From a virus, in the IMG/VR virus record IMGVR_UViG_3300037201_000018, positions 30,384 to 94,383 of that record: DNA of 64,000 bases. One strand, 5' to 3'. Positions 3,294 through 26,516 of the stretch are shown piece by piece; the first letter of the stretch is position 1; the number at the start of each line of letters is the position of its first letter. The position numbers and the translations under genes were made by a program. Below the pieces are notes generated by a model that saw nothing but the letters and a program-made list of their open reading frames with translations, did no database searches and was not told the DNA's origin.

Positions 3294-3764
3294 TTGAGTA
3301 TCCCCCTAGCTAACTCCCCCGCCGACGTCGTTCGCTACCTGCTGATCGCGCTCGGCTTGGGAACCTTACCGACAAACACTCCACAAGGGAACTGGCCTAT
3401 TAGTTCTGGTCAGGAGTTGAACGACCCTGATAACACTGTGACAGTCTACGACACGCTGGGAAACAAGCACGCGAGGATCATGATCGACGGGCAAGTCGTC
3501 GAGGACCCCGGCATCCAGATCAGAGTGAGAGCGACTGACAACCCTACCGCTCAGACTCAGGCGGAGATCATCAAGCAGGCGATCGACGAGAGAGCAACGG
3601 GATACAACGTCCAGATCCCCGACTTGAGCAACGTGCTTCACAACTTCACGGTCTACGCTCTCAATCGATCAGGGAACCCGATCCAGTTGGGGAAGGAGTC
3701 CCCGACGAGCAACAGAAGGATCTACACGATCAACGCCACGGTAACTCTCAGACAGGCAACCTAA
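3294..3764 (+). CDS. tail terminator / minor capsid-like protein
   Basis: VTVYDT..G, PGIQIRVRA and RRIYTIN motifs; position before the tail tube gene. Confidence 0.7.
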   Translation: MSIPLANSPADVVRYLLIALGLGTLPTNTPQGNWPISSGQELNDPDNTVTVYDTLGNKHARIMIDGQVVEDPGIQIRVRATDNPTAQTQAEIIKQAIDERATGYNVQIPDLSNVLHNFTVYALNRSGNPIQLGKESPTSNRRIYTINATVTLRQAT

Positions 3765-7804: not shown

Positions 7805-8976
7805 CCGCGACTGTCCAAGGTATCCTCTCGTGGAGCGCGTCTGAGAACCAGGACGGGCACAAGGACTACCACATCGTCCTGGAGGTCGAGTCAGCTCTAA
7901 ATGACGGTCCCGACGCGATCCTCAACGCTGCTGGGATGCCGGCGATTGGTGCACCGTACCAAGGTTCTTCCCTGCCAATGGTCGCCAACGGCGGTAGCCC
8001 CTCGATAATCAACGACTTCAACCCTTGGGCCTTCCGTTGGCCGAACTGCGAAGTCAAGATTCACAGCGAGAAGAGCGGAGAGAACACGAAGTGGTACGAG
8101 GCGGACATCCTGTTCTCGACCCGGCCTCTCGAACGGTGCATGACGGCGCTACCAGCGAACCCGATCAGCGAACCTCCCAAAATCGGGGGGTCGTTCACCA
8201 AGTTCACACGGGAGGCGCTGGTCGACCGCTATGGCTATCCAATCCTCAACTCCGCGTTGGAGCCGATAACTGGGCAGCAGGTCGAGAGGGATTACAACAC
8301 GGCATCGGTTACGATCGAGATGAACTTCGCCACGTTCGGGGGTGGAACGTGGGCACCGATGATCGACACATTGAATGACTCAACTCTGTGGGGTCTTCCT
8401 CCCCGATGCGTCAAACTGAGTAACGTCAGATGGCAAAGAAAGTTGTATTCACTCTGTACGTTCTTTTACAACTTCACCTACGAGTTCGACATCAACTTTG
8501 AGACGTTTGACCGCCTGCTACCAGACATCGGGACCAAGATCTTGGCTCCGGGTGGCAACGTGTTCAACCCCAGTCACTTCGTCGCCTACCAGGATCTCCA
8601 GGGGAACACAGGGACGGTGACGCTCGACGGTTCTGGTAACCAGTGGACTGGGATCAGTTCTGGTGTAGTTATCGTCGGGTTTTCGGTCAGTACTAACTCC
8701 CTAATCTCGACAGCTGCACCGCACAATCTATCTATTGGGGATCAATGTATCATCGTCGGGACTGGTGGGACGGTAAACCTCAACGGAACATGGGAAGTAA
8801 CTGATACGCCTACATCGAACGAGATCATTATCGATAACCCTTTCGTTCCTTCAGCGACGCTCTCGGCAGCCAGTCAACTTGGTAGCTTTGCCAACTCGAC
8901 CCTACCCGGATCGAACTACGTGCAGTTCTATGACGAATCCAACTTCCTGCTGCTCGGGATTCCCTCCTCTCTCTAG
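7801..8976 (+). CDS. distal tail / hub-like protein with inserted beta domain
   Basis: Directly follows the tape measure gene. C-terminal insert TAAPHNLSIGDQCIIVG..G..NLNG.W resembles the FCCH-like domains seen in tail proteins. Confidence 0.55.
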   Translation: MTATVQGILSWSASENQDGHKDYHIVLEVESALNDGPDAILNAAGMPAIGAPYQGSSLPMVANGGSPSIINDFNPWAFRWPNCEVKIHSEKSGENTKWYEADILFSTRPLERCMTALPANPISEPPKIGGSFTKFTREALVDRYGYPILNSALEPITGQQVERDYNTASVTIEMNFATFGGGTWAPMIDTLNDSTLWGLPPRCVKLSNVRWQRKLYSLCTFFYNFTYEFDINFETFDRLLPDIGTKILAPGGNVFNPSHFVAYQDLQGNTGTVTLDGSGNQWTGISSGVVIVGFSVSTNSLISTAAPHNLSIGDQCIIVGTGGTVNLNGTWEVTDTPTSNEIIIDNPFVPSATLSAASQLGSFANSTLPGSNYVQFYDESNFLLLGIPSSL

Positions 8977-8986
8977 CGAGCGAACG

Positions 8987-9454
8987 ATGAAAGGTGAACA
9001 GCTGCCAGACACGACCTACCCAGCTGACGGGAGACTGAGGAACAACGACCGACTGACAGTGATCACCCAGATCCATCACGACCACACCGGAAGACCGACG
9101 TTCAGTGGCGACGTTAGATTTGACAGACTACTAAGAACGACTGAGCAGCCGCTCCATCGGGAGATCGAGATCGGTGAGGAGCCAACTCAGCTGGAGACCC
9201 ACTGGATGAAGGAGGTCGGCTACGTCCTGATCCACAACATCACTGGATCAAACTTCCAGATACATCCATCGAAAGCCGAGAAGGAAGACAACGAGAAGCG
9301 AATCGTCAAGGTGACGTTCGGACTTGACTGTGTTAAGGGCCTCCTGTTTCCTCCAGGGACTGGCTACCCGATCGAGGTTGAAGACATCACCAGCGTCTAC
9401 CTGAGGAGCCTGTACAAAAAGGCCCTCGTCAACGTCTACCTTTTCCCAGCCTGA
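8987..9454 (+). CDS. putative minor tail protein
   Basis: Position in the tail operon; ATG at 8987. Confidence 0.5.
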   Translation: MKGEQLPDTTYPADGRLRNNDRLTVITQIHHDHTGRPTFSGDVRFDRLLRTTEQPLHREIEIGEEPTQLETHWMKEVGYVLIHNITGSNFQIHPSKAEKEDNEKRIVKVTFGLDCVKGLLFPPGTGYPIEVEDITSVYLRSLYKKALVNVYLFPA

Positions 9455-9462
9455 AGTAAACT

Positions 9463-11898
9463 GTGACCGAACCTCTTCATTTCTTGACTGAGCAGGACCG
9501 GCAGAAGCTGGTCGACACGATCGACCAAGCGAAGAAGCTCCGTGTCAGCAAGCCAGTCATAAGTAAAGATCCAAAGCTCGCCGTCGCTCAGGACGTCTAC
9601 GTCGCCCGAGTCCCCTGCGGTCTCCAGATCCCTGCGAGCACGGCGACTCAGCCGGGATACCTCGACTGCTGCATCTTCAAGATCACGTGGCAGACCGACA
9701 TCAACAATCCCACGATGGTCTACCAGCCACTCCTGAACCCCGATGGTTCAGCGGTGCGGGAGCGGGTCTACAACATCTACGACGTCCCAGTATTGGACTG
9801 TCAGTACATCCAGATCTACAAGACAAAGGACGGACACTTCGTCAACGAGAACCCGGATTGGATGGACTGTCCTAACAATCCCGCGAGTACGTCATCAACC
9901 AGCTCAACTTCGAGTTCCACGACGACGGTCGCCCCGCAGAACACGTCAACGACGACTCCCAACCCGAACTATGCCTACTGCGCAGGAGTCTGCCAGTGGG
10001 TCTGGAGTGCCACAAACAAAACCTGGAGCGTCACGAGCAGCACTTGCTACATAGCAACGACGACCAGCTCGACGAGTTCTAGCAGCACCAGCAGCACGAG
10101 TACTAGCTCGACTAGCAGTACATCTAGTACGAGTACGACTAGCAGTACATCTAGTACGAGTACGACGAGTACCTCGACGACGACTCCTTGTCCCTGCCCG
10201 ACGACGTCAAGTTCCAGTTCGAGTTCTACATCGTCGACTAGCTCTAGCTCGACGTCATCGACATCTTCAACTAGTACGACGTCATCCACGACAACGAGCA
10301 GCACGACGACTCCTGCCCCCTGTCAGTGTCTCTATCCAACGACCTGTGGGACGAACGACGGGGACTGCACGACGACGTACTGCTCGACGGGGATCAATCA
10401 GCCCCCGAGCTGCGGTCAGTCGACGACCAGCTCATCCTCAACGACCTGCTCGCCCTGTCAGTCTTGTGCAGCTACGTCGACAACGCCATCGCCTGGAGGT
10501 GGAGGTAGCGGAAATAACTGCGGTAACTGCATAGCGACTTGTTTGGGAGTCGTGGCTGGGACGTGTAACGACAAGGCAGGAACTTGGACGTTAACGACTG
10601 GATGCATCTCACCAACCGGGTGCGGTTGCCCACTCTTCGGTCAGAACTTCGTTCCTGGGATCATCGGAACACCGTGTAGCACTAACGGTGCCACGATCTC
10701 GATGGTATGCATCACTGGGGAGACTATCCCACCTGGATCTAGCAGCAGCGGACAGTGTTGCTACAGTTGGACCGGATCGGCGTGGCAGTACAAATCTACC
10801 GCATCGACTCCCTGCGCCGTTTCGGGAATTGTGACTTCTGGCCTTACCTGTCAACCTCCATCAGCCCCCGGCGGGACTGTCTGCGGTATATCTTGTACGC
10901 CATGCGTGGCGGCGGGAGGAGGTGGTAGCCCAGGCAATCCAGCGACTACCCAAGCTCCATGCTGCACCGGATACTCTGGCCCCGTCTGCGGGGGCGTCCC
11001 TCAGACCTCAACGACAACTACGACTGCCCAGCCTTGCGGGACCGGCTGCTCCTACAGTTACACTACCAGTACCTGGTCTCTCGTCTCGAACAACTGCGGT
11101 CCCTGTTCTTGCGTCGCCCCAACTGGAACTCCGAGTCCTGCCTGTGCCGCTGGCTCAAATATCCAGGTAATGCCCTGTGGTCCCCAGACGTCCTCGACAA
11201 CTACCACAACGACTACGACGACTACCACAACGACTACGACGACTACGACGACTACTACGACCACGACGACTACTACGACCACGACGACTTGTGCTCCAAA
11301 TGGGTGCGTCCCAATAGCAACAGGATGCCCAAGTAGTGGAGGAGTTTGTGCAATTTATTGTGCAAATGGATGTGGAGGAGGCGGTCCCGGTTGGTATGGC
11401 CACGCTGAGGGTGCCGGATGTGCATCCAGTTGCGTTGTATATTCTCCCTCTCCTGGAAATTGTGTTTATCAGGCATGCGGCCCCGGCTGCCCCAATAATT
11501 TACCATCAAGCCCAACTGATGGGCAGACCGTTTGTGGAGGATGCATTCCAGGCGGCATTTCGTCACAGAATTCTTGCTTTGGTGCCATGAGTGGTTGCAC
11601 TACCTGCAACACCACCACGACAACTACAACGACCACCACTACCACGACGACGACGACCACAGCTGCTCCTTGTCAGTGGCAATGCTGTGAACCGGGCAAA
11701 GACAACCCTTACGGCTGGCAGCTGCTGAGCACCACCTGCGGAGGAGGATTCGCGTGTCTGCCACCTGCGACGGTCTGTAATGCTGGCACGGCGAACTGCC
11801 TAATCGCCACAAACAGTTGCGTCCCCAGCAGCACGCCAGGGTCGACAAACACGCCCTCCGGGTACACCAGCTGTAGTGGTGGTGGAGTCTGTAGTTAA
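9463..11898 (+). CDS. Cys-rich, Ser/Thr mucin-like protein (putative tail fibre / receptor-binding protein)
   Basis: Globular N-terminus, then Cys-rich modules (C.Y/W.W....W..) separated by S/T tracts, including 31-Thr and 17-Thr runs. Confidence 0.7.
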   Translation: MTEPLHFLTEQDRQKLVDTIDQAKKLRVSKPVISKDPKLAVAQDVYVARVPCGLQIPASTATQPGYLDCCIFKITWQTDINNPTMVYQPLLNPDGSAVRERVYNIYDVPVLDCQYIQIYKTKDGHFVNENPDWMDCPNNPASTSSTSSTSSSTTTVAPQNTSTTTPNPNYAYCAGVCQWVWSATNKTWSVTSSTCYIATTTSSTSSSSTSSTSTSSTSSTSSTSTTSSTSSTSTTSTSTTTPCPCPTTSSSSSSSTSSTSSSSTSSTSSTSTTSSTTTSSTTTPAPCQCLYPTTCGTNDGDCTTTYCSTGINQPPSCGQSTTSSSSTTCSPCQSCAATSTTPSPGGGGSGNNCGNCIATCLGVVAGTCNDKAGTWTLTTGCISPTGCGCPLFGQNFVPGIIGTPCSTNGATISMVCITGETIPPGSSSSGQCCYSWTGSAWQYKSTASTPCAVSGIVTSGLTCQPPSAPGGTVCGISCTPCVAAGGGGSPGNPATTQAPCCTGYSGPVCGGVPQTSTTTTTAQPCGTGCSYSYTTSTWSLVSNNCGPCSCVAPTGTPSPACAAGSNIQVMPCGPQTSSTTTTTTTTTTTTTTTTTTTTTTTTTTTTTTTCAPNGCVPIATGCPSSGGVCAIYCANGCGGGGPGWYGHAEGAGCASSCVVYSPSPGNCVYQACGPGCPNNLPSSPTDGQTVCGGCIPGGISSQNSCFGAMSGCTTCNTTTTTTTTTTTTTTTTTAAPCQWQCCEPGKDNPYGWQLLSTTCGGGFACLPPATVCNAGTANCLIATNSCVPSSTPGSTNTPSGYTSCSGGGVCS
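11197..11289 (+). repeat. poly-Thr coding tract (31 ACN codons); second tract at 11611-11661 (17 ACN)
   Basis: Mixed ACA/ACT/ACC/ACG codons, in frame. Confidence 0.9.
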
Positions 11899-11910
11899 GG
11901 AATCCGTAGG

Positions 11911-12363
11911 ATGAGAACTCTGCCGACGATCACCGCTGCCCAGCTGCTGGGGTTCGGTCCCTGTGCCGAGTATCTGAAGGGCGGCAAGCGAGAGAGCGTC
12001 ATCAGCCAGTCGCCTGAGTGGGACGCTAGGGGACTCCTGTCGTTGGACATCCCAGACGACCACAAGTTGTGGGCGGTCCTGAGACTCGAACTGCTACCGC
12101 AGGACTTGCTGGATAACTGCGTCAAAGCGATCCACGCGGACTATCCCGAGCTGAGAGGCGAGATCGTTCCCCCAGCCGGCAGTACCTACGAGCAAGACCG
12201 AGATGTCATCCTCTCCTCACTGAAGAAGAAAAAGTATCTCTCCGCCTGCGTCCACTGCACCCAACTGGCGAGACTGATCCCCCGCAACCGTAACGTGCGG
12301 CAGGAACTGGCGAGGCAGGTCGAAGTGATCAAGCAGCAGGTCCAGAACTGGATAGATGATTAA
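11911..12363 (+). CDS. hypothetical protein
   Basis: Packed ORF between the mucin-like gene and a glycosyltransferase. Confidence 0.6.
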   Translation: MRTLPTITAAQLLGFGPCAEYLKGGKRESVISQSPEWDARGLLSLDIPDDHKLWAVLRLELLPQDLLDNCVKAIHADYPELRGEIVPPAGSTYEQDRDVILSSLKKKKYLSACVHCTQLARLIPRNRNVRQELARQVEVIKQQVQNWIDD

Positions 12364-14272
12364 CCCCTCTCAAACTGGAGTGACAGAAGTGCCCAAACTG
12401 ACGATCGGGATGGCCCACCACGCGGACGTCGCGAGATTAGAGTCTACAGTTCAGTCTTTGAGACTGCATCACGCGGTCGACTGGAACTTTGAGATCGTGA
12501 TCGTCGACAACTCGGCGAACCTCCCCTGCACTCAGGACCTCGTCAACTTTATCAACTCGGCGACGTCTCACGATCGCTGCGTGATCAAGTACGTCCCCAT
12601 GACCGATCCCGTCGGTACGAGTCCCACGAGAGACCTGATCTTCCAGATCGCGACGGGCGACTTCGTGCTCGTGATGGATTGCCACGTCATGCTTGACAAG
12701 GATGCCATCTCTCGTCTCTTGAAGTTCTACTCTGAGCATCCCAAGACTGACGACCTCTACTCTGGTCCCTTACTGACTAACGACTTGAGAACCTCGTGGA
12801 CTCACTTCAACGACCAGTGGCGGGCGGAGATGTGGGGAACGTGGAGTACGGCCTGGATCTGTCCCTGCGGAGGAACGCGGTTCTCCACGCTCGACATGGG
12901 GACCGGTAAGATGATCCCGATCGCCCTGACGATGGGAGCGGTCAAGATCGACGGCTGCCACTACTGCGGCAAGCAGTTACCCAAGGACGGTCCCTGGAAC
13001 GGTCACGAGGACTACTTAGAACGACAGGGTTGGATTCCTCTCGGGAGAGATCCCGACGAGAAGCCCTTCGAGATACCGGGCCAAGGTTTGGGACTCTTCA
13101 CTTGCCGTCGGGAGTCGTGGCTCGGCTTCAACAAGGATTCGAGGTTCTTCGGAGGCGAGGAACTCTACATCCACCAGAAGTACAGGAAGGCTGGGAGAAC
13201 CTGCTGGTGTCTGCCCTTCCTCCGCTGGTGGCACGACTTCTACAAGGACCCCAACAAGCCAACTTACACCAATACGACATGGAACAAGTGTCGGAACTAC
13301 GTATTAGAGTCTCAAGAGTTGGGCGAGGAGTGGATGCCGCTGCTCGACGTCAAGAACCACTTCATCGGGCAGAACAACTTCACGGAGGCCCACTGGAACA
13401 AGCTGATAGCCGATCCCGTCAAGAGGGTCAACGAGAGCGACTGCCCTGGCTGTCAGGCGGCTCAGGCTGCCATGATGATCCAAGACGATCCTCAGATCAA
13501 GACCCTCGACGACGCATTCGACGTCGTCTCAAAGATTCCCCGTGACATGGAGCAGCACATGCCCAAGCTGCGGGAGCTGGCAGCCGACGTCTCGCACGTG
13601 ACGGAGATCAGTCACCGGCGGGAGGGGACGATCGCGTTCCTGGCTGCTCGACCCAAGTTCATCAAGTCCTACAACCTAGAGCCAGCTTCCCCTCAACTCA
13701 GCAAACTCGCGAAGGAGGCGGGAGTCTCGCTAGACATCCAAGCCCCCGCCGACGGTTACGTTAAAATAGAACCGACGGATCTGCTCTTCATCGACGACGT
13801 CGAGACGTATGAGAGAACCAAGCAGCACCTAGAGAGACTGTCGGGCTCAGTGAGTCGCTACATCGTCTTCCACGACACGATCTTCGCCCCTCCGATGATG
13901 CAGGCGATCAGGGAGTTTCTGTTCGTCAATCGTCAGTGGTCGGTCATCTACCACACGGTCGAGGAGCACGGGCTGACTGTCCTCGGTTGCAGAGACGAGG
14001 ACAAGCCAAAGCTGCCGCCCTTCACCGACGAGCTGAAGAATGTCACCCGGAGCATCTGGAAGGCGGCGACGAACTACGTTAAGGGAGGGCAGACGAACGT
14101 CGAGCCTGAGGTCTATGAGAAGCGACTCTCGATCTGTGCGACCTGCACCCAGCGAGTCAACGACCGCTGCGCTGCCTGCGGGTGCCGCATCGAACTCAAG
14201 GCGAGCTTGGCAACGGACACCTGCCCCCTCCTCTACTGGCCCCTACTGAATGCAGAAGGGAAGGTAGAATGA
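12356..14272 (+). CDS. multidomain GT-A glycosyltransferase (GT2/GT27-like) + class I methyltransferase-like domain + C-terminal Cys-rich (DUF6171-like) domain
   Basis: EIVIVDN; VMDCH (DxH); GLF...FGGEELYI...LP....HDF; DLLFIDD...YIVFHDT; C-terminal RLSICATC...CAACGC...CP. Confidence 0.75.
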   Translation: MINPSQTGVTEVPKLTIGMAHHADVARLESTVQSLRLHHAVDWNFEIVIVDNSANLPCTQDLVNFINSATSHDRCVIKYVPMTDPVGTSPTRDLIFQIATGDFVLVMDCHVMLDKDAISRLLKFYSEHPKTDDLYSGPLLTNDLRTSWTHFNDQWRAEMWGTWSTAWICPCGGTRFSTLDMGTGKMIPIALTMGAVKIDGCHYCGKQLPKDGPWNGHEDYLERQGWIPLGRDPDEKPFEIPGQGLGLFTCRRESWLGFNKDSRFFGGEELYIHQKYRKAGRTCWCLPFLRWWHDFYKDPNKPTYTNTTWNKCRNYVLESQELGEEWMPLLDVKNHFIGQNNFTEAHWNKLIADPVKRVNESDCPGCQAAQAAMMIQDDPQIKTLDDAFDVVSKIPRDMEQHMPKLRELAADVSHVTEISHRREGTIAFLAARPKFIKSYNLEPASPQLSKLAKEAGVSLDIQAPADGYVKIEPTDLLFIDDVETYERTKQHLERLSGSVSRYIVFHDTIFAPPMMQAIREFLFVNRQWSVIYHTVEEHGLTVLGCRDEDKPKLPPFTDELKNVTRSIWKAATNYVKGGQTNVEPEVYEKRLSICATCTQRVNDRCAACGCRIELKASLATDTCPLLYWPLLNAEGKVE

Positions 14273-14345: not shown

Positions 14346-14639
14346 ATGTTAAACTCTAAAGAACACGTATGTCATCACTGTGATAATCCGCCATGTTGTA
14401 ATCCAAAGCACCTGTTTCTAGGTAACGATAAATCTAATCGCCGAGACGCTACGTCTAAATTTAGAACGGAGCACGGAGAGGATCATCACTTCGCAAAGAT
14501 AACTGAGAGGGATGTACTGGAGATTAGAAAATTGGGGGCTGCTGGATCACACCGCCACCGGCAATTAGCTGAGATGTTTGGTATTAGTATTTCACAAATT
14601 GTCTCGATAATCCACCGAAGGTTTTGGAGGCACATATGA
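14346..14639 (+). CDS. HNH endonuclease (short, probably truncated homing endonuclease)
   Basis: VCHHCDNPPCCNPKHLFLG..N motif, GEDHHFAK motif and C-terminal HTH. The usual N-terminal part is lacking; AT-rich. Confidence 0.75.
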   Translation: MLNSKEHVCHHCDNPPCCNPKHLFLGNDKSNRRDATSKFRTEHGEDHHFAKITERDVLEIRKLGAAGSHRHRQLAEMFGISISQIVSIIHRRFWRHI

Positions 14640-15430
14640 GAAGTAACCCATTTATTGCGTGCTTGTGTGCAACTTACAAGAGACCGACTTGCCTGGCGAA
14701 CGCGGTCGCCTGTTTCTTGGCTCAGGAGTACGAAAATAAGGTATTGGTGATCGTAGATGACGCCGCGCAATACAACCCACGTGAGTACGATTGGAAGCAA
14801 CCCAAGAACATCCTGATGATCTCTTGGCAGCAGAGAGGACCGAGCCTCAGCGAGAAACGAAATGAAGTAGCTAGGATCGCTAAGGACGGATATGAACCAG
14901 AGATCTTTGCTGTTTGGGACGACGACGACGTTTACCTCCCGAATCATCTCAGCAACATAGCCGCGGGTTACGAGCGAGGGGGAGAGTTCTTCCTTCACAA
15001 GAAGGTACTGACGACCTACGACTGTGGAGAGACCGGAAAGACGGTTTTAGAACAGGCGGTGTATGAAGTCGCCGGTCCCTGGGAAACCCGGTTCCATTCC
15101 TCCTGGGCATTCACGCGGGAGCTGTTCGAGCGAGTCGGGGGTTATCCCCCTCCTATGCCTAACGGGCAATACGATGATTTTGAGACTCAGCTCGGAATAA
15201 ACCTAAAGCGAGTCGGTAAAGTAGAATATATCGACGGCGATGGACCGAGTTACGTCTGCCGGGTGTTCAACCAAGCCGAGTACCACTTGACGCAGACGGA
15301 CGGGAAGAGCTACCAAGAGAACTGGGAAAGGATCGGCAAGTTGCCATCTCCGTTCGTCGGCGAGTTAGTTCCAAAGATGGACGACTGGACCAAGCGACTG
15401 TACGTGAACTTAACTGGAGTAAAAGCGTGA
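14636..15430 (+). CDS. glycosyltransferase family 2
   Basis: CLCATYKRP, VIVDD, KRN and WDDDDVY motifs. Confidence 0.85.
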   Translation: MRSNPFIACLCATYKRPTCLANAVACFLAQEYENKVLVIVDDAAQYNPREYDWKQPKNILMISWQQRGPSLSEKRNEVARIAKDGYEPEIFAVWDDDDVYLPNHLSNIAAGYERGGEFFLHKKVLTTYDCGETGKTVLEQAVYEVAGPWETRFHSSWAFTRELFERVGGYPPPMPNGQYDDFETQLGINLKRVGKVEYIDGDGPSYVCRVFNQAEYHLTQTDGKSYQENWERIGKLPSPFVGELVPKMDDWTKRLYVNLTGVKA

Positions 15431-16248
15431 GCGACGAGCTTCCTTTCGTATCGTGCTTGTGCCCTACCTATCGTCACCCAAAGCTACTGGCCAACGCCGT
15501 CGCCTGCTACCTCTCGCAGGACTACCCGTTGGAGAGGCGAGAGCTGATCATCCTCGACGACTACGGCCAATACGAGAACAAGAGCTACGACGGTTACCAA
15601 GTCGTCTCCGTCTCTCGTCGATACGTTTCGTTCTGGGAGAAGCGGTGTGCGACAGCGGCTCTCGGGAGGAACTTGGGAGAGAACAAATCCCCAGACGTCT
15701 ACTGTGCTTGGGACGATGACGACGTCTACATGCCGTGGCACATCACAGCCCACATCGAGGCGCTGAAAGTCAGACGGCGGGGTAGGGACGCTGTTGCCTA
15801 CTCACATCCCATGAAGATATTCAGCACATATGGGCGAGTCTTACATGAGGAAGACGGTCGAGGTCGGTTTGAGGGTTCTTTCGCATTCACCCGAAGAGCC
15901 TACGAGAAGGCCGACGGCTGGCCAGTCACCAAGCGGGGAGGGGGTGACCAGATATTCATCGGTCGACTGGAGAAGGCCTGCGGAGGAAAGATCGACGACC
16001 CCTGCGAGGGATATGCCCCCAGCTACGTCTACCGTTGGGAGTCTACGAACAGTAATCATTCATCGGGGTACCATAAGTCGTTTGACGACGAGGAGTGGTA
16101 TGATCGCTACGCGAGAGAGGCGAACTTCGACGACGAGGGGGCCAGCAGGATCGTCTTACCCCAGTTCGATGCGGAGACGAAGCAGATCTACAGTCTAGTC
16201 GATCAGGAGAAAGGAATCGGCCTTGAGACACATCAGATACAGAGTTGA
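15427..16248 (+). CDS. glycosyltransferase family 2 (paralog of upstream gene)
   Basis: VSCLCPTYRHP, ELIILDD and WDDDDVY motifs. Confidence 0.85.
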   Translation: MSDELPFVSCLCPTYRHPKLLANAVACYLSQDYPLERRELIILDDYGQYENKSYDGYQVVSVSRRYVSFWEKRCATAALGRNLGENKSPDVYCAWDDDDVYMPWHITAHIEALKVRRRGRDAVAYSHPMKIFSTYGRVLHEEDGRGRFEGSFAFTRRAYEKADGWPVTKRGGGDQIFIGRLEKACGGKIDDPCEGYAPSYVYRWESTNSNHSSGYHKSFDDEEWYDRYAREANFDDEGASRIVLPQFDAETKQIYSLVDQEKGIGLETHQIQS

Positions 16249-16471
16249 CCCCGACGTCGAGATCAGTCGGGTCCTCAACCAACTCTTGGACTACTATGAC
16301 GATAAAAAGTACGAGGAACACCAGATCGAGAGGGCCAAGCGACCGCCGATCTACGAGAAGAGGCATGAGTACGGATGTTATCTTGACACTGGAAAGCCTC
16401 TCTCCGAGGAAGATCGCGAGAACTTGAGAAAAGAACTGGCAGGCGAGATCAGAGGAGACATCGACGAATGA
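16223..16471 (+). CDS. hypothetical protein
   Basis: Packed ORF. Confidence 0.45.
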   Translation: MRHIRYRVDPDVEISRVLNQLLDYYDDKKYEEHQIERAKRPPIYEKRHEYGCYLDTGKPLSEEDRENLRKELAGEIRGDIDE

Positions 16472-16629
16472 GTGAACCTACCCACTACCACTGCCCCTAC
16501 GGACACGAACATCCTCAACCGTGCGAACTGGAAGACGGCAGGGTCATCTGTCGGAAGTGCTTGTACGACGACGGCGTAGAAGTTGAATGCATTCTATGTA
16601 CGCCAGAGACCTGCGGAGAGCGAGCATGA
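16468..16629 (+). CDS. small Cys-rich protein (53 aa, not in ORF track)
   Basis: MSEPTHYHCPYGHEHPQPC...CRKC...CILCTPETC. ATGA overlaps on both sides; GAGGAG RBS. Confidence 0.55.
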   Translation: MSEPTHYHCPYGHEHPQPCELEDGRVICRKCLYDDGVEVECILCTPETCGERA

Positions 16630-17402
16630 GATGGGCTTACGGAGTGATGACTTGTAAAGAGCGAGCGACGAATATCCTAAGTAAGACTCTCACGTCACTG
16701 GCAACGGGGGGATTTGACAAGCCGCGAATTTTCCTCGACGATGGTTGGGAAGAGATCCCGATCGCAATCGAACTGGATTTCACAAATAGAAGTCCGCGAA
16801 TCAATCCGTTCGGTAACTGGCTGCTCGGGATTTGGGAACTCTACATCAGGAATCCCAACGCCGAGCGATACGCGATGTTCCAGGACGACATCGTATGCTA
16901 CAAGAACCTTCGTCAGTACCTCGAACAGTGTAACTTACTTCAGTACCAACCGATGACCGAATCAACCAGAACAGACACGATTCAAGAACCAAATAAACGA
17001 TACTGGAACCTCTTCACGTTCACGGCAACAGTCGACGTCGCTAAACACCAACCCTCGAACGAGGAACTAGCTCCGAAAGACAGAACAGGTTGGTACGAGT
17101 CCAACCAACTCGGTCGGGGGGCGGTCGCCCTCGTGTTCGATCGTCAGGGACTCCAGACGTTACTCAGCAGCCCCCTCCTCGTTCAGCACCCGATGGAAGT
17201 CTATCTGGGAACTAGGAGGATTGACGGGATTGTACGAGATTGCCTGAGTGCCGCTGGTTACGTGGAGTACGTTCATTGGCCTTCGCTCGTTCAACACGTG
17301 GGAGACCTCTCGACGATCGGCAACCCAACACAGAAGCCCGCCATCTCCTTCCGCGGCGAAGAATATGATGCTCTCAACTTACTGAAGAGGGAAACCGTTT
17401 GA
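16626..17402 (+). CDS. putative GT-A fold glycosyltransferase
   Basis: YGVMT..R, MFQDD and PSLVQHVG..S motifs. Confidence 0.7.
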   Translation: MRWAYGVMTCKERATNILSKTLTSLATGGFDKPRIFLDDGWEEIPIAIELDFTNRSPRINPFGNWLLGIWELYIRNPNAERYAMFQDDIVCYKNLRQYLEQCNLLQYQPMTESTRTDTIQEPNKRYWNLFTFTATVDVAKHQPSNEELAPKDRTGWYESNQLGRGAVALVFDRQGLQTLLSSPLLVQHPMEVYLGTRRIDGIVRDCLSAAGYVEYVHWPSLVQHVGDLSTIGNPTQKPAISFRGEEYDALNLLKRETV

Positions 17403-17575
17403 TCTATCTTATTCCGTTATCAATTATTGCGGGGGTACTTGTCTTTGCTACCTCTACCTTGTTTGACGTAGTGAAGCAAATCGAAAAAGTGGCGGACGAA
17501 CTGATGGGAATACACAACGCGATCATCGCCGAGCAGGTTCGGAGAGACGAACGAGAGAAGAGGTACGAGACATGA
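17399..17575 (+). CDS. small membrane-anchored protein (58 aa, not in ORF track)
   Basis: TTG start overlapping the upstream stop; N-terminal hydrophobic helix; stop overlaps the next ATG. Confidence 0.45.
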   Translation: MIYLIPLSIIAGVLVFATSTLFDVVKQIEKVADELMGIHNAIIAEQVRRDEREKRYET

Positions 17576-17898
17576 AGGCCCTCTGCATCTGTCAGTACGG
17601 TCACTCGCGATCGGTCGCTCTGAGTCGAGTGTTACACGGCAGGTCGATCGAGGCAGTCGCGATCGGCTGGTCTACTGCGGGACAAGACGCGATAGACGTA
17701 CTGTCAGAGTGGGCTCATTACATCTTCATGCTGGACATGACGAACGGACCCCATAAGATCCTACCGAGGCACAGAATCAAGATCGTCCCGTTCGACGTCG
17801 GACCTGACAGGTGGAGTAACCCCTACAACCAAGAATTGCTTGAGATACTCGGTAAGAAGTTCAACGAGTTCTATGCGACGCTACCGACGGAAGACTGA
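17572..17898 (+). CDS. low-molecular-weight phosphatase (LMW-PTP/ArsC-like)
   Basis: N-terminal P-loop CQYGHSRS (CX5RS); EWA..I; later D.W motif. Confidence 0.7.
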   Translation: MKALCICQYGHSRSVALSRVLHGRSIEAVAIGWSTAGQDAIDVLSEWAHYIFMLDMTNGPHKILPRHRIKIVPFDVGPDRWSNPYNQELLEILGKKFNEFYATLPTED

Positions 17899-17900
17899 CG

Positions 17901-18959
17901 ATGCCCGAACCCTGGACGATCGACGACACGATCGGTCGCTTGCAGACGACTCAGCTGCCGAGGCTCGTCAAGCCAGCTTACGTGCCGAAGGAGGAGAGTC
18001 AGCGTAGGATCATGCTCGCGGTCGAGTCGATGAAGCGGCACACCAGCGATGAAGGTTATCAGATAGCCCAGGGACTGGAGAGCGCGGGATACGATCTCGT
18101 AGGACACCGGATGACCTTCGACGTGACCGACGTCCGCAGGATCTACCAGAGTCTCAAGCCGGGGACAGTCGTCGTTCAGGACAAGCGGGAGTGGGACGTC
18201 CAGCCGGGAGACTTCCGCGAGCACGAGGCTCGATTCCACCACGTCTCCTGTCTGGCGTACCAACCCGAAGTCTTCAGACTGACGATCCTCAAGGACTCTC
18301 ACCAGCGGCCGGAGTGGCATCGAGAGAGTGCTGATGAGATCAACTGCCACGCCTGGATCGTCTATTACAACAAAAGGATCGTGCAGCACGTTGCTACCTA
18401 CGTCAGACCCGAGCACCTCGTGAGGACGTACCACAGTCTTGACCCCGACCTGGTTCCTCCCTACTCGGGCGATCGTAACCAGGAGTGCTTGTTGTCGGGG
18501 GCTGTCTCGGCAGCGTATCCTCTCCGACTGAGTATCGTGCGTAACCTCTGTAACACACCGGGAATTACTTACCTCTCACATCCGGGTTATCACCGTAACG
18601 GTTCTGCGACCCCCCAGTTCCTCAAGAACCTGAGTCACTTCAAGGTAGCGATCTGTACGGCGTCGATGTACGGCTACGCTCTCCGCAAGATCATGGAGGC
18701 GACGGCCTGCGGCTGCCGAGTCCTGACCGACCTACCAGTTGACGAGGTTCTGCCTGAGATCGATGGGAACTTGTTTAGAATTAGACCAGACACGTCAGCG
18801 TACCACGTTGGGATCTATGTCCGTCAGCTCGTCAAGGAGTACGACGCCGACAAGCAAAGGGACTACGCCGATAAGGCCAAGCAGTTCTACGATTACAGAG
18901 CAATAGGAAAGAGATTGTCTGACGACATCGAGAAACTGAGGAAAGGCTACAATGACTGA
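17901..18959 (+). CDS. GT-B glycosyltransferase (CgeB/Glyco_trans_1_2-like)
   Basis: C-terminal YALRKIMEATACGC..LTD motif. Confidence 0.65.
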   Translation: MPEPWTIDDTIGRLQTTQLPRLVKPAYVPKEESQRRIMLAVESMKRHTSDEGYQIAQGLESAGYDLVGHRMTFDVTDVRRIYQSLKPGTVVVQDKREWDVQPGDFREHEARFHHVSCLAYQPEVFRLTILKDSHQRPEWHRESADEINCHAWIVYYNKRIVQHVATYVRPEHLVRTYHSLDPDLVPPYSGDRNQECLLSGAVSAAYPLRLSIVRNLCNTPGITYLSHPGYHRNGSATPQFLKNLSHFKVAICTASMYGYALRKIMEATACGCRVLTDLPVDEVLPEIDGNLFRIRPDTSAYHVGIYVRQLVKEYDADKQRDYADKAKQFYDYRAIGKRLSDDIEKLRKGYND

Positions 18960-19185
18960 GCAAGAGCAATATCAAGAATACGAGGCAAAGAGAAAGGAAC
19001 ATCAGTACGAGATCCGCAGAGAACGATTTGCGTTAAAAATTTACGGGATACTAACTCAAGAAGAAGCCGCTGGAGAAGCATTTCCAGACTGGAAAGAGAT
19101 AGCGGAGAGGGCTGTTACAGCGGCTGACGCCTTAGATAACGCTCTCTATCCTGATCCTCATGTACTTCCCCCTTACGAGGCATAA
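18952..19185 (+). CDS. hypothetical protein
   Basis: Packed ORF. Confidence 0.5.
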   Translation: MTEQEQYQEYEAKRKEHQYEIRRERFALKIYGILTQEEAAGEAFPDWKEIAERAVTAADALDNALYPDPHVLPPYEA

Positions 19186-19187
19186 CG

Positions 19188-20357
19188 ATGAACGAAGCTG
19201 AAGCAATCGCGAAGATGATCGGACCCGGTCAGCGTCGACCGAGGAAGAGTTATCGTGAAGGCGTGATGCAGATCTGGACCACGAACGTCTGCGACAAGGC
19301 GTGTTTTGGATGTACCCAGCTCGGACAGATCAAGTCGCCGAAGAGGTTCATCACGCCGGAGCAGTTTGAGCAGGCAGTCATCAGTCTTGGATTCGAGAAG
19401 GGGGACGGTTTACCTTCTTGGCGAAACGGAATGCCCTCAGAATCTTATTTTGGAGTTGTTGGAGTTTTCGGTGCCAACCCCGCTCTTCATCCTCAGTTCG
19501 ACGATCTCTGCGATGTCTTGCAGACCTACGTCCCTTTCGAGCAGCGAGGACTCTGGTGCAACAACCCACTTGGTCACGGCAAGAAGATGCGAGAGACGTT
19601 CAACCCCGCGGTCAGCAATCTCAACGTCCACTTGGATCAGAAGGCTTATGACGAGTTCAAGCGAGACTGGCCGGAGGGGAACGTCTTCGGACTGCACGAG
19701 GACAGTCGTCACAGTCCCCCGTGGGTCGCGATGCAGGACATTATGATAAACATAGAAGATACTGTGACGCCACAGGGAATCGTCTCAAATTCTGAAGCTG
19801 AACGCCATTCAGTCAGCTTACGACACCTGACAGAAGAGGAGCGATGGACTCTCAAATCTGGCTGCGACATCAATCAATACTGGAGTGCGATGATCGGGGT
19901 CTTTCGGGGGGAGCTGAGAGGTTACTTCTGCGAGGTCGCGGGGGCTCAGGCGATCGCTCACCAGGACGATGATTGCCCCGACTGTGCGATGAGAATTGAC
20001 ACTGTGGACAGCGGTGAAGTCCTGCAACACTTCAAACGCAAGGACGGTTGCCCAACTTGCAAGGGAACCAGGCTCTATCCAGACCTCGGTTCAACGATCT
20101 ACGATGGCTGGTGGAAGCAGCCGATGGAAGCCTTCAAGGAACAGGCAAGGTTCCACTGTGACGCCTGCGGAGTTCCATTACGAGGCTACGGCGAACTGGC
20201 CCAATCCCACGAGGGACTCGAACAGGTCAGCAAGACCCACGAGGCGATCTTCAAGCCGAAGCGAAGCAGCCACCTCGTCCAGCTCGTAACCGACCGCAGC
20301 CAGCTCGGCAAACCCCTGGCGGTAATGACTCAATACCTGCAAAATTCTCATAAGTAA
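19188..20357 (+). CDS. radical SAM protein
   Basis: CDKACFGC (CxxxCxxC); FGANPALHPQF; C-terminal SPASM-like Cys. Confidence 0.8.
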   Translation: MNEAEAIAKMIGPGQRRPRKSYREGVMQIWTTNVCDKACFGCTQLGQIKSPKRFITPEQFEQAVISLGFEKGDGLPSWRNGMPSESYFGVVGVFGANPALHPQFDDLCDVLQTYVPFEQRGLWCNNPLGHGKKMRETFNPAVSNLNVHLDQKAYDEFKRDWPEGNVFGLHEDSRHSPPWVAMQDIMINIEDTVTPQGIVSNSEAERHSVSLRHLTEEERWTLKSGCDINQYWSAMIGVFRGELRGYFCEVAGAQAIAHQDDDCPDCAMRIDTVDSGEVLQHFKRKDGCPTCKGTRLYPDLGSTIYDGWWKQPMEAFKEQARFHCDACGVPLRGYGELAQSHEGLEQVSKTHEAIFKPKRSSHLVQLVTDRSQLGKPLAVMTQYLQNSHK

Positions 20358-20369
20358 TCGAGCAACGTG

Positions 20370-20675
20370 ATGCCTAAATTCAGAAAGAATCCGATTGTAA
20401 TTGAAGCGTTCTGCTGGCTTAAAAATGGAGATCACCCAGAAGACGGGCCGGCTGAGACAGAGGGTAAAGTCGTTCGATACTTTCGCCATCCACAAGTGGC
20501 TGCCGACAAGTGTTGTCCGCATTGCCTAAACGCCATGAATGACCACGGATTTATGGACACACACGAAGGCGGATATACTGTTTGCCCTGGCGACTGGATT
20601 ATTACGGGCGTGAAGGGCGAGCGTTATCCGTGTAAGCCAGATATCTTCAGGGCGACTTACGAGGAAGTGAAATAA
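20370..20675 (+). CDS. PGDWI/PGDYG-type phage protein
   Basis: RKNPIVIEA...PGDWIITGVKGE.YPCKPDIF..TY motif. Confidence 0.75.
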   Translation: MPKFRKNPIVIEAFCWLKNGDHPEDGPAETEGKVVRYFRHPQVAADKCCPHCLNAMNDHGFMDTHEGGYTVCPGDWIITGVKGERYPCKPDIFRATYEEVK

Positions 20676-20676
20676 T

Positions 20677-21441
20677 ATGGACTCGGACTTCCCCAGTGCG
20701 ATGCTCCCCGAGATCGAGGAGTTCCTCTCGAAAGACAGCGAGAGAGAATCTGGACTCGATCTCTACCCAGGCGTCTTCGACACACAGCACTTCTTCCCGC
20801 TTCAGAGGAAGGAGGAGCTGAAGAAGATGATCCAGACGGCTCGGAAGGTCGAGCCGAAGGTCATCATGGAGATCGGAGCAGATAAGGGGGGAGGACTGTA
20901 TCACTGGTGTAAGTGCTTCCCCAGCGTCGAGAGAATCATTGGATGTGAGATACGAGGGACACCGTACTCCAGCCTCTTCGAGCGGTCCTTTCCGAATGTC
21001 AACTTCCTCTGGCTGCCGGTGAGCAGCTACGACAACAAGACGCTGAACGCTGTTCACAGGTGGCTCGGCGAGGAGAGACCCGACAGGCTGAAGATCGACG
21101 TCCTGTTCTGTGATGGCGAGAAATCGTACTTCAAGAAGGACATCGACGCCTACCTACCCTTCATGTCCCCGAAGGGGGTTATGTTCCTGCACGACATCAC
21201 GGACTGGGATGGTCCCCCGCAGGCGTTCGAGTACGCCCAGAGTCTGGGTTTCAGGACCGAGACGATCATCGACAAGTCAGACACGATGCAGTCGCTCGGG
21301 AGGGCGATCCAGGGTCAGGCAGCGACGACTCCCTACGAGAGCTGGCTACGGCACTGGGCCGGGACCTCGTGCGGGGTCGGGGTCGTCTGGATGAGAGAAT
21401 CTCAATTTACTGTCAACGAAAGGAAGTTTAGAGATGAGTAG
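20677..21441 (+). CDS. class I SAM-dependent methyltransferase (Methyltransf_24-like)
   Basis: MEIGADKGG, DVLFCDG and MFLHDI motifs. Confidence 0.75.
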   Translation: MDSDFPSAMLPEIEEFLSKDSERESGLDLYPGVFDTQHFFPLQRKEELKKMIQTARKVEPKVIMEIGADKGGGLYHWCKCFPSVERIIGCEIRGTPYSSLFERSFPNVNFLWLPVSSYDNKTLNAVHRWLGEERPDRLKIDVLFCDGEKSYFKKDIDAYLPFMSPKGVMFLHDITDWDGPPQAFEYAQSLGFRTETIIDKSDTMQSLGRAIQGQAATTPYESWLRHWAGTSCGVGVVWMRESQFTVNERKFRDE

Positions 21442-21577
21442 CGGCAAACCAGTTCTACAGCCTCAGCCGACTTGCAAGCATGAGTGGGAGATCTCCCGCG
21501 TGAGGGTCGGCATCAACAAGTATGAGACCCGACATACCTGCAAGAAATGTGGGGAAACTAACCCACCAGGAAAGTAG
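21434..21577 (+). CDS. small Zn-ribbon protein (CKHEW...CKKCG), not in ORF track
   Basis: 47 aa ORF; same motif type as 22423..22614. Confidence 0.45.
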   Translation: MSSGKPVLQPQPTCKHEWEISRVRVGINKYETRHTCKKCGETNPPGK

Positions 21578-21578
21578 A

Positions 21579-22469
21579 ATGGCTAAAGAGTGCAAACTGA
21601 TAGGACAAGTTGGAGGAGTTTATCAGATTAGAAATACCTCAAACCAAAAAGCCTATGTTGGATCTACGAAGTGCTTTACTGGTAGATGGAAGACGCATAA
21701 GATCGCCCTTAGAAACGGCATTCACCCTAACAGATATCTGCAAAACGCTTGGAACAAGCACGGAGAAAAAGCATTCAAATTTGAGATCCTTATTAAATGC
21801 CGCTCTAGCTTGTGCTTGAAAAATGAGCAGAAGTGCATAGACGAAAGGACACTTAAAAATCTGTACAATCTTGCTCCAAAAGCTAACGGCGTTTTTGGAA
21901 TCAAATGGTCAGAAAAATCTAAAGAGGCTTTTCGGGCACGTTGGAATGAAATTTACTTAACTCCTGAATATATTCAGCACATGAAAGCTATCAAATTCGG
22001 AACAAAACGGTCAAAACAAGCCATAGAAAAACACAAACTGTGGATGAGTAAAAACCGAGCCAAACTCGGAGCAGCTATTAAGCGGGGTCTTGCCAATCCC
22101 GAGGCCAGAAGAAAAATGCGTGAGGCAGCTGCCAGACGTTGGGCATCGCGTAAGGCTGAGATTGCTAAAGTCAACGCAAATAATCGCAAAAATATAAACC
22201 CAGCGGTGTCAGAAGGTGCCAAGAGGGGCTGGATTACTAGAAAAGCTAATTACGGGACAGATGGGGGAGTCTCTGGGAAAATAGCAAATAAAGCTTTAAT
22301 AACCAGAAGACAGAGATATGGCCCCAGTGGAAGGTCTCCAAGAGCAGCGGCCGAACTAGAGAAGCATCGAAAGCAGGCAAAATTGAGGAAAGATAAATTC
22401 AGGAAGGAACTGGCAGAAATCTATGAAAATATTCTCACGAAAAGACGAAAAACCAACACCAGTATGTGA
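21579..22469 (+). CDS. GIY-YIG homing endonuclease
   Basis: GVYQIRN...AYVGS...RW..H...L..G.H.N..LQ.AWNK.G. Basic NUMOD-like tail; AT-rich. Confidence 0.85.
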   Translation: MAKECKLIGQVGGVYQIRNTSNQKAYVGSTKCFTGRWKTHKIALRNGIHPNRYLQNAWNKHGEKAFKFEILIKCRSSLCLKNEQKCIDERTLKNLYNLAPKANGVFGIKWSEKSKEAFRARWNEIYLTPEYIQHMKAIKFGTKRSKQAIEKHKLWMSKNRAKLGAAIKRGLANPEARRKMREAAARRWASRKAEIAKVNANNRKNINPAVSEGAKRGWITRKANYGTDGGVSGKIANKALITRRQRYGPSGRSPRAAAELEKHRKQAKLRKDKFRKELAEIYENILTKRRKTNTSM

Positions 22470-22614
22470 ACATCTATGGGTCAAGAAGTGTACTGGCGGA
22501 GTCTGTCAGGTCGTCTGCGTCCTCTGCGGTCAGAAGGGAACTAACGCCAGTTTACCCAAGATAGACCCAAAAGTGTTAGAGACTGTACGTAATCATCTAG
22601 GACCTTCAAAGTGA
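22423..22614 (+). CDS. small Zn-ribbon protein
   Basis: CEHLW...CVLCG motif. Confidence 0.45.
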   Translation: MKIFSRKDEKPTPVCEHLWVKKCTGGVCQVVCVLCGQKGTNASLPKIDPKVLETVRNHLGPSK

Positions 22615-22901
22615 ACGAGCAAGTGAGAAAAGAACGAACGCTGTCAGATGAAGAGTTAGGTGCAATTGAATTTCGTGTCAACGGTTGGTTGCCAACCGAT
22701 CCAGATTACGCAACAGAGGGGATGATCTCCCAAGAGATCCCGCTTCTCATCAGTGCATTACGTTCTACGAGAAATGCGCTCCGACAACAAACGGGACTCG
22801 TCGAGAACGCTCGTAAAGTTGTGGAAGAAGGACAATCTTGGTCGTTCTTTGAATTAGAAGAAGCTCGCCAAATCCTCCGAGCATTGGGAGAGGACAAGTG
22901 A
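22611..22901 (+). CDS. hypothetical protein
   Basis: Packed ORF. Confidence 0.5.
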   Translation: MNEQVRKERTLSDEELGAIEFRVNGWLPTDPDYATEGMISQEIPLLISALRSTRNALRQQTGLVENARKVVEEGQSWSFFELEEARQILRALGEDK

Positions 22902-23488: not shown

Positions 23489-23494
23489 TAGAAA

Positions 23495-23555
23495 TTGCGT
23501 GGCTAGGGTCGCTCCTGAAAAGCAGAAACCTCGCTGCCTGCCACGTAACTTTTTA
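23495..23555 (+). promoter_or_regulatory. structured leader (three-way junction followed by a U tract) upstream of HNH endonuclease
   Basis: TTGCGTGGC/GCCACGTAA outer stem with inner AGGG/TCCT and GCAG/CTGC hairpins, then TTTTTT. Confidence 0.45.
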
Positions 23556-23583
23556 ATTGAGGGCTACTGGGGGAGTAGAAAAC

Positions 23584-25186: not shown

Positions 25187-25187
25187 C

Positions 25188-26338: not shown

Positions 26339-26516
26339 GTGGAAGAAAGACAATCTAGCCGCTGTAGTTGACGACCTCGTGAAAGGAAAGATAGATGAGC
26401 AAAAGGCGAGAGAAAGATTGGCGGTAATCATTGACGAATACGTCGTTGAAGCACTACAAGACAGGGACCACAGCGAAGAGTCTGCATTACAGAGATCGTT
26501 TAGGAGAGAACTATGA
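26328..26516 (+). CDS. hypothetical protein
   Basis: Packed ORF. Confidence 0.45.
   Translation: MMSKWKKDNLAAVVDDLVKGKIDEQKARERLAVIIDEYVVEALQDRDHSEESALQRSFRREL

Follow-up and report, generated by a model that had tools for sequence, protein, structure and literature searches.

Why should the tail module of a bacteriophage contain an enzyme whose predicted fold most resembles that of the polypeptide N-acetylgalactosamine (GalNAc) transferases, which place the first sugar on mucins? This question is raised by IMG/VR virus record IMGVR_UViG_3300037201_000018, a single contig of 94,383 bp that CheckV rates as 100% complete. We analyzed its right-hand 64 kb (positions 30,384 to 94,383, or 64,000 nucleotides), referred to here as the window, in whose numbering all coordinates are given. 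An earlier note on this DNA had described, at the tail-fiber position, a Cys-rich protein of 811 amino acids (aa) with runs of 31 and 17 Thr residues, and two genes later a glycosyltransferase (GT) of the GT-A type carrying a DxH motif together with GLF, FGGEELYI and LP....HDF. Translation and composition bear out both descriptions, with one 150-aa open reading frame (ORF) lying between the two genes. We found that the GT domain is predicted to fold like the GT27 polypeptide GalNAc-transferases, that the putative counterparts of their catalytic residues are conserved among its relatives, and that in essentially all phage loci encoding the same architecture the enzyme gene directly follows a gene for a Cys-rich protein with Ser/Thr tracts; the co-occurrence that the note had proposed to check is thus present, and dozens of other phages show the same pairing. 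We consider it rather probable that the phage O-glycosylates the Ser/Thr tracts of its own tail fiber in the host cytoplasm. As part of the same best explanation, the phage would be of the siphovirus type and the cassette would be expressed late.

Predicted fold and catalytic residues of the enzyme

The 638-aa enzyme combines a GT27-like GT-A domain with an O-methyltransferase-like domain and a Cys-rich DUF6171 domain (Table 1). Its translation probably starts at a GTG codon at position 12389 (residue V12 of the ORF), because its relatives and a public 627-aa record (P0004) begin there. The GT-A domain contains the motifs VLVMDCH (D108, H110), GLGLF, FGGEELYIH (residues 265-273) and LPFLRWWHDF (residues 286-295). 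A database search returned 705 relatives at E <= 0.001, most of them with the same length and architecture and located on contigs of 45-95 kb; a tblastn search of 50,697 GenBank phage records gave 0 matches, and no cultured relative was identified. Pfam recognizes Glycos_transf_2 (PF00535) in residues 28-132 of the enzyme only (E 4e-9, 37.1 bits versus a cut-off of 23.3), and the same model is matched by 32 of 32 members of the enzyme family. GT27 enzymes also match PF00535, and the model does not discriminate. A phmmer search of the PDB sequences with the enzyme found no match. There is no Ricin_B_lectin match in the enzyme, whose C-terminal half is instead made up of the O-methyltransferase-like and DUF6171 domains.

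We built an AlphaFold2 model of the enzyme with 32 relatives (mean predicted local distance difference test score (pLDDT) 85.7); the structure discussed here is thus a predicted and not an experimental one. In a Foldseek search of the PDB with this model, ranks 1-48 are all GT27 polypeptide GalNAc-transferases (E 4e-13 to 1e-10). The top 29 entries found by VIA are again all GT27 enzymes (Z 20.0-23.3, 248-271 residues aligned, root mean square deviation ~3 A), the best other family being represented by the chondroitin polymerase K4CP (Z 19.0) and the remaining GT2-type enzymes following at Z 17-18. An independent fold search of 48,161 representative chains yielded mouse GalNAc-T1 (Z 22.4) and Toxoplasma GalNAc-T3 (TgGalNAc-T3, Z 22.0), and below GT27 it listed K4CP (19.0), WrtF (18.1), B4GALNT1 (18.0), TarS (17.2), SpsA (16.8) and TarP (16.2). 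Of the comparison between GT27 and GT2 that the earlier note had suggested, the structural half is thus answered in favor of GT27 by three fold searches, whereas hidden Markov models (HMMs) place the enzyme in the generic GT2 clan only.

In human GalNAc-T2, the Mn2+ ion is coordinated by Asp224, His226 and His359, and key roles also fall to Trp331 and Glu334 (PMC4432651). Judged by motif order, spacing and aligned ranges, their counterparts in the phage enzyme are D108, H110, F265-G-G-E268 and H293, and F265 is separated from H293 by 28 positions, as is Trp331 from His359. Across 127 GT domains from viral and genomic contigs, D108, H110, F265, G266, E269, W291 and H293 are conserved throughout (126-127 of 127 rows, with one gap; D108 in 126, H110 in 126 and H293 in 127). 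We thus describe the enzyme, on the basis of its model, as a GT27-like GT-A enzyme of the GT2 clan and not as a demonstrated GT27 member, because sequence methods miss GT27 and because the protein has neither a lectin domain nor a membrane anchor (no transmembrane segment; maximal Kyte-Doolittle 19-residue score 1.48). Nor does the fold match imply that GalNAc is the sugar being transferred.

One feature of the catalytic domain sets a subset of the family apart. Between the two halves of the GT-A fold, at 12860-12970, some 50 residues are inserted that carry a Cys4 motif (CxC...CxxC; C169, C171, C201 and C204). The insertion is confined to a clade of Planctomycetota phages and is missing from relatives that consist of the GT domain only. 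It may represent a zinc-ribbon element for acceptor docking, replacing the lectin domain of GT27 enzymes.

The second domain was modeled separately together with the C terminus (Table 1), and the first 180 residues of that model, which begins at residue 370, adopt a class I methyltransferase fold. Its nearest matches are cation-dependent O-methyltransferases: Foldseek relates this domain to SafC, PaMTH1, MeT1 and Rv0187 (E ~1e-6), and VIA to 8c9v (Z 16.1), the sugar O-methyltransferase MeT1 (14.5) and the rhamnosyl 4'-O-methyltransferase SpnH (14.1), with scores declining smoothly to 11.8 at rank 50. Among 32 relatives, 16 are recognized by the Pfam model RMNT_CmcI (PF04989, rhamnosyl O-methyltransferase/CmcI; best E 1e-4), which misses the window enzyme itself, and 14 by Methyltransf_24. 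The C-terminal DUF6171 domain scores 35.1 bits against a Pfam cut-off of 27, is also recognized by phrog_13558 (E 3.5e-12) and is present in 31 of 32 relatives, with six invariant cysteines (C594, C597, C605, C608, C610 and C623); it is probably a zinc-binding tail. Our literature search returned no paper that mentions DUF6171.

The Ser/Thr-tract protein and its linkage to the enzyme

The proposed acceptor is the 811-aa protein, which contains 20.8% Thr, 15.1% Ser (36% for the two together), 10.2% Gly, 8.7% Cys and 8.5% Pro. Small Cys-rich modules are located between its Ser/Thr tracts, which comprise runs of 14, 43, 37, 34 and 17 residues; the 14-residue run, at residues 142-155, consists purely of Ser and Thr, and the positions of other tracts are given in Table 1. 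No second ORF with these properties occurs in the 94,383-bp genome. The protein has no signal peptide and no transmembrane segment, and none of the three proteins that we examined in this respect contains one. Searches of Pfam, PHROG and NCBIfam with it returned nothing beyond a spurious, sub-threshold SPX match. A protein with this Cys content would have to fold in a reducing cytoplasm.

About 135 residues at the N terminus form a domain that is probably used for tail attachment. It has no match in a word-index search of 5.8 billion proteins or in the Atlas, its relatives being found only in the loci that we fetched. Further along, the protein contains a mini-module of ~20-25 residues with the pattern C..[WYF]x[WYF]..(4-12)..Wx[LVIY]..C, for example CQWVWSATNKTWSVTSSTC. 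This module, seen in the window protein and in its counterparts in loci L001-L045 and L079-L084, is found in 50 of 67 Cys-rich partners of the enzyme versus 2 of 1334 other genes, and it may be a receptor-binding unit strung on Ser/Thr linkers.

The Thr codons of the 31-residue run are mixed (ACG 14, ACT 10, ACC 4, ACA 3). From this mixture, which is real, the earlier note had argued for selection at the protein level rather than slippage. TRF detects an imperfect 9/18/21-nt periodicity in the poly-Thr DNA (78-87% matches), indicating that duplication or slippage contributed to the tracts as well. In addition, the longest Ser/Thr run of the partner protein differs among near-identical phages, that is, those with identical or nearly identical GT domains: it comprises 30 residues in L014 versus 26 in L035, 37 in L084 versus 34 in L090, and 41, 38, 40 and 41 in L093, L094, L095 and L127, respectively. 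These findings together indicate that the tracts evolve by duplication or slippage yet stay Thr: tract length changes fast, and the tract itself is kept.

We investigated the linkage of the two genes in loci harboring genes for relatives of the enzyme (78 viral and 80 genomic), fetched with flanks of 10 kb and corresponding to the window up to ~24 kb. A partner was scored if it contained a Ser/Thr run of at least 8 residues and at least 3.5% Cys, and if its gene ended within 1.6 kb upstream of the enzyme gene on the same strand. Such a partner is present in 22 of the 25 loci that encode the full three-domain architecture and include enough upstream DNA. In the remaining three (L030, L031 and L044), visual inspection revealed a protein of the same kind; in one the run is 7 residues long, and two had been missed by greedy gene calling. 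By comparison, a Ser/Thr run of this length occurs in just 13 of the 1451 other genes of all loci fetched (0.9%). The gene order tape measure, ~300-aa protein, ~165-aa protein, Cys- and Ser/Thr-rich protein and GT is conserved, with the last two adjacent in most loci. Ser/Thr runs in the partners range from 8 to 77 residues, and the partners bear several different N-terminal domains. Searching in the opposite direction, with the tail protein's N-terminal domain as query, identified 11 loci, 3 of which end before the position of the GT gene; in 8 of the 8 informative ones the GT gene is found downstream, so that no counterexample lacking the GT was found among these eight, a test of low power.

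The distant relatives are more telling than the adjacency within the main clade. Relatives that consist of the GT domain only (26-35% identity) directly follow poly-Thr proteins that look unrelated and are Cys-poor or moderately Cys-rich. The partners in L046 and L052 have repeat domains ending in poly-Thr, that in L058 has TTTTTTLAP/ARP repeats, and that in L061 has 25 Thr residues followed by (TTTS)n. The L078 partner matches a PHROG family annotated as virion structural protein, and those in L048 and L076 contain ~4% Cys, the latter matching Hoc-like head decoration proteins. In the far clade as a whole, 13 of 71 loci have such a Ser/Thr-rich neighbor, where ~2% would be expected by chance, as estimated from the 0.9% background.

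Assemblies that contain full-length relatives of the enzyme concentrate in the Planctomycetota (Pirellulales, Planctomycetaceae, Schlesneria, Gemmataceae, Thermogutta, Thalassoglobus and Bremerella volcania), and this is the most likely host phylum. A few full-length relatives are found in bins that carry other phylum labels, where phage contigs have probably been binned wrongly. One Schlesneria metagenome-assembled genome harbors three nearly identical full-length enzyme genes (L083, L085 and L087), each located at a contig end and without a Ser/Thr-rich upstream neighbor; the copies may belong to a repeated element or to prophage junctions that break the assembly.

A proposed pathway and competing acceptors

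How might the encoded proteins act together? In the pathway that we propose, the 811-aa tail protein would be made in the host cytoplasm, with its N-terminal attachment domain followed by Cys-rich modules on Ser/Thr tracts. The soluble enzyme, through a putative Mn2+-type DxH...H site (D108, H110 and H293), would then transfer the first sugar from a host nucleotide sugar to Thr or Ser, as polypeptide GalNAc-transferases do with mucins. Two GT2 enzymes encoded downstream would lengthen the glycan, to which the fused O-methyltransferase-like domain may add methyl groups. In this way the tail fiber would become mucin-like, extended and hydrated, and would resist proteases. Relatives of the first downstream enzyme (268 aa) accompany the lead GT in 25 viral and 21 genomic loci, and relatives of the second (273 aa) in 20 viral and 22 genomic ones; two co-conserved GT2 genes fit one initiating enzyme that is followed by elongating ones. 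Tail and cassette genes are co-oriented and closely packed, the cassette continues the late tail operon, and this tight packing, together with the lack of transmembrane segments, is compatible with action in the cytoplasm. At the level that computation reaches, the mucin-type glycosylation envisaged in the earlier note is supported; glycosylation itself and the stiff, shielded rod that it would create we infer, and the acceptor, the sugar, the order of the steps and the benefit to the phage are proposed in the same conditional sense.

Several observations weigh against this pathway. A profile search of the PDB sequences with the enzyme did not reach GT27; its best matches are two wall-teichoic-acid GTs, the phage-encoded GlcNAc-transferase TarP (E 7e-7) and TarS, both aligned over the nucleotide-binding half only (residues 2-128). 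The weak NCBIfam matches all concern polysaccharide GT2 enzymes. The sequence FGGEELY stands in place of the WGGENxE of GT27, and its F, G and E are invariant, yet the Pfam model Glyco_transf_7C (PF02709) is matched by 0 of 32 family members at E <= 1. Likeness in fold does not fix the acceptor, GT27 and GT2 being related GT-A families. A Ser/Thr-rich neighbor is missing beside many of the cellular relatives that consist of the GT domain only, which occur in Alphaproteobacteria and elsewhere. Because the main-clade partners share the mini-module, inherited synteny is inseparable from functional linkage within that clade, and much of the adjacency could be inherited. Only the position of its gene places the 811-aa protein in the virion. 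Finally, two features of the second domain bear on the proposed methylation step. The position of motif I reads TEISHRREGT (family consensus TEFSKRREST), a nearly invariant sequence without the usual GxG glycines, and 11 residues following an HDT motif are deleted in the window copy (at 13840-13880) and present in each of the 31 relatives aligned, also in the two most similar to it (59% and 58% identity). The fused methyltransferase-like domain of the earlier note is thus recovered as a fold, by Foldseek and VIA, and its motif I is non-canonical; from the model, binding of S-adenosylmethionine (SAM) appears plausible.

The Tar and NCBIfam matches, the cellular relatives and the common module of the main-clade partners would all be in line with a different substrate. 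The enzyme and the downstream glycan genes could act on a host envelope polysaccharide, a teichoic-acid-like polymer or a lipid carrier, and serve superinfection exclusion or receptor masking, with the adjacency to tail genes reflecting inherited order. We regard a non-protein acceptor of this kind as unlikely. The TarP and TarS matches do not extend beyond a generic nucleotide-binding half, and the fold of the whole domain is 3-4 Z units nearer to GT27 than to TarP, TarS or SpsA. The enzyme has no transmembrane segment and its gene belongs to a cassette that prolongs the late tail operon, and distant relatives of the enzyme adjoin poly-Thr proteins that look unrelated. There is also no integrase or resolvase gene in the complete 94,383-bp genome and so no sign of lysogenic conversion, a reading that we rejected for this reason.

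A protein acceptor other than the 811-aa protein has a still smaller chance of being correct in our view. Here, capsid, tail tube or decoration proteins would be glycosylated, as in the mycobacteriophage Che8, leaving the Ser/Thr tracts of the 811-aa protein as unmodified flexible linkers. According to PMC12363180, mycobacteriophage virion proteins, including the capsid, are indeed glycosylated; in the present genome, a few other ORFs carry short Ser/Thr runs of 6-8 residues, and some of the distant poly-Thr neighbors match head-decoration or structural families and not fibers. The 811-aa protein, however, is by far the richest candidate in the genome, with runs of up to 43 residues, and it is always the tract-bearing protein that is the conserved neighbor of the enzyme.

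Genomic setting and comparison with known systems

The features of the tail module and of the cassette are listed in Table 1.

Table 1. Tail module, proposed acceptor and glycan cassette in the window
Feature	Position	Strand	Residues	Evidence
Tail terminator, start of tail module	3294..3764	+		Pfam PF12691 Phage_tail_terminator_6, E 7e-8; PHROG head-tail connector, E 3e-7
Tape measure protein, 783 aa	5453..7804	+		12 PHROG tape-measure families, best E 1.4e-18
Probable minor tail or tail-tip protein, 391 aa	7801..8976	+		Homologues of ~300 aa after the tape measure in 13 related loci
191-aa ORF	8879..9454	+		BLASTP relatives, ~165-aa ORFs, same position in 9 related loci
811-aa "mucin-like" tail protein, proposed glycan acceptor	9463..11898	+		Open frame, translation and composition
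N-terminal domain of tail protein	9463..9870	+	~135 aa	24-37% identity with partner N-termini, 11 loci
Two Ser/Thr-only tracts, 43 and 37 residues, PCPCP between	10057..10311	+	199-241, 247-283	
31-residue poly-Thr tract	11197..11289	+	579-609	
17-residue poly-Thr tract	11611..11661	+	717-733	
150-aa ORF between acceptor and enzyme genes	11911..12363	+		Open reading frame
638-aa three-domain enzyme (GT27-like GT-A, O-methyltransferase-like, DUF6171 Cys4)	12356..14272	+		Pfam, AlphaFold2 model, fold searches
GT-A catalytic domain	12389..13435	+	~12-360	Fold matches span model residues 10-358
Class I (cation-dependent O-methyltransferase-like) domain	13493..14005	+	~380-550	Separate model of residues 370-638, pLDDT 90.3
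DUF6171 Cys-rich C-terminal domain, CxxC...CxxCGC...C	14063..14239	+	581-628	Pfam PF19668, E 2e-8
268-aa GT2 glycosyltransferase, candidate elongating enzyme	14624..15430	+		Pfam PF00535, E 1e-7
273-aa GT2-like glycosyltransferase	15427..16248	+		Weak NCBIfam GT2 equivalogs, TuaG E 1.4e-5

The 391-aa protein encoded after the tape measure has no Pfam or PHROG match and, by phmmer, none among the PDB sequences; a weak Atlas lead (score 0.85) connects it to Phage_min_tail clusters, which comprise lambda-type minor tail proteins. The 191-aa ORF is without family matches, and the ORF of the 811-aa protein starts 8 bases past it. The 150-aa ORF has no family match and no relative in any fetched locus. 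Elsewhere in the window, a single tRNA-Met (CAT) gene is located at 44155-44229.

Downstream of the enzyme gene, the 16-kb glycan island runs on (14346-29575) with Methyltransf_24, FkbM and Methyltransf_23 domains, a further GT2 gene (25697-26338) and, at 24285-24998, a Radical_SAM match below threshold. It also contains a homing-endonuclease-like GIY-YIG ORF (21522-22469), and for several of these genes the only relatives are those in L024 and L030. A 535-aa ORF of the island (26513-28120) matches Pfam Intein_splicing in residues 91-354 (E 1.7e-10). Phage islands rich in GTs, methyltransferases and radical-SAM enzymes, such as the one at 12-28 kb of the window, often serve DNA modification, and the GTs, methyltransferases and radical-SAM enzymes could thus hypermodify DNA, by base glycosylation, as a protection against restriction. 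We find this very improbable and have rejected it: the complete genome contains no gene of the thymidylate-synthase/dCMP-hydroxymethylase family, the lead enzyme is of the wrong type, being a GT-A protein closest to protein O-GalNAc transferases, and it is encoded in the tail module, where it tracks poly-Thr proteins.

We compared the proposed glycosylation of the tail fiber with known systems. The closest solved folds are those of the GT27 enzymes human GalNAc-T2, mouse GalNAc-T1 and Toxoplasma GalNAc-T3 (Z 22-23 over ~260 residues at 15-20% identity). Common to both are a metal site formed by DxH and a downstream His at the same spacing, a GGE(E/N)L motif standing in for WGGENLE, and long Thr/Ser tracts as the presumed acceptor in the phage. 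Unlike GT27 enzymes, the phage enzyme has no ricin-type lectin domain and no signal anchor and is predicted to be cytoplasmic rather than Golgi-luminal; it shows no HMM link to GT27-specific models, contains the ~50-residue Cys4 insertion and is fused to the O-methyltransferase-like and DUF6171 domains. Generic GT2 enzymes (PF00535; phage TarP, Staphylococcus aureus TarS) share the N-terminal nucleotide-binding half and differ in having DxD instead of DxH, in their lower fold scores (TarS 17.2, SpsA 16.8 and TarP 16.2 versus 22.4 for GT27), and in that the phage enzyme adjoins poly-Thr proteins and not polysaccharide genes. In the serine-rich-repeat adhesins of Gram-positive bacteria, very long Ser/Thr tracts are O-glycosylated in the cytoplasm by several enzymes, with GtfA/GtfB and accessory GTs acting on Fap1, GspB and PsrP; as in the phage, the enzymes are encoded beside the substrate gene. 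That system is bacterial, is initiated by a GT-B (GT4) pair and not by a GT-A enzyme with DxH, and relies on accessory Sec export.

Glycosylation of phage particles as such is already known, and it is the type of enzyme, its architecture, the acceptor and the host group that are new here. As related in PMC12363180, which refers to Freeman et al. 2023, phage-encoded GTs glycosylate virion proteins of the mycobacteriophages Che8, Corndog and Myrna; the enzymes include Che8 gp110 and Corndog gp38, according to PMC12363180 and PMC12582341. The arrangement would be similar in our phage, where we propose from the genes alone that soluble phage-encoded GTs act on structural proteins of the same phage within the host cytoplasm. 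A Che8 glycosyltransferase (BFVD entry Q855A2) is found among the viral fold matches of the enzyme, as a weak match at rank 11 (E 8e-10, TM-score 0.22-0.34). The present system differs in its host phylum, in a proposed acceptor that is a Cys-rich tail protein with Ser/Thr tracts of 17-43 residues, and in a lead enzyme that joins a GT27-like GT-A domain to methyltransferase-like and DUF6171 domains. Our literature search found no paper linking GT27-like enzymes to phages.

In the papers cited, experimental proof that phage enzymes glycosylate phage particles is confined to a few mycobacteriophages. If our proposal is correct, virion glycosylation would extend to another host phylum, to an enzyme resembling the initiator of animal mucin glycosylation, and to the receptor-binding end of the virion. 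A coat of glycans could affect host recognition, protease resistance, fiber stiffness and the tendency to stick to surfaces. A more general version, which we offer tentatively and think doubtful in its full extent, is that a large group of uncultivated Planctomycetota phages, and distantly many others, carry cytoplasmic, lectin-less polypeptide O-glycosyltransferases that are the closest known non-eukaryotic relatives of GT27 and build methylated O-glycans on the poly-Thr linkers of modular Cys-rich fibers, such that mucin-type glycosylation would be common and functionally important in phage particles. The family is large, with its 705 relatives, and a soluble enzyme together with a poly-Thr peptide makes a simple, testable system; a compact, soluble enzyme that resembles polypeptide GalNAc-transferases and has no lectin domain could also serve bacterial glyco-engineering. 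If the proposed activity is real, the family would bear on the evolutionary origin of the eukaryotic GT27 enzymes.

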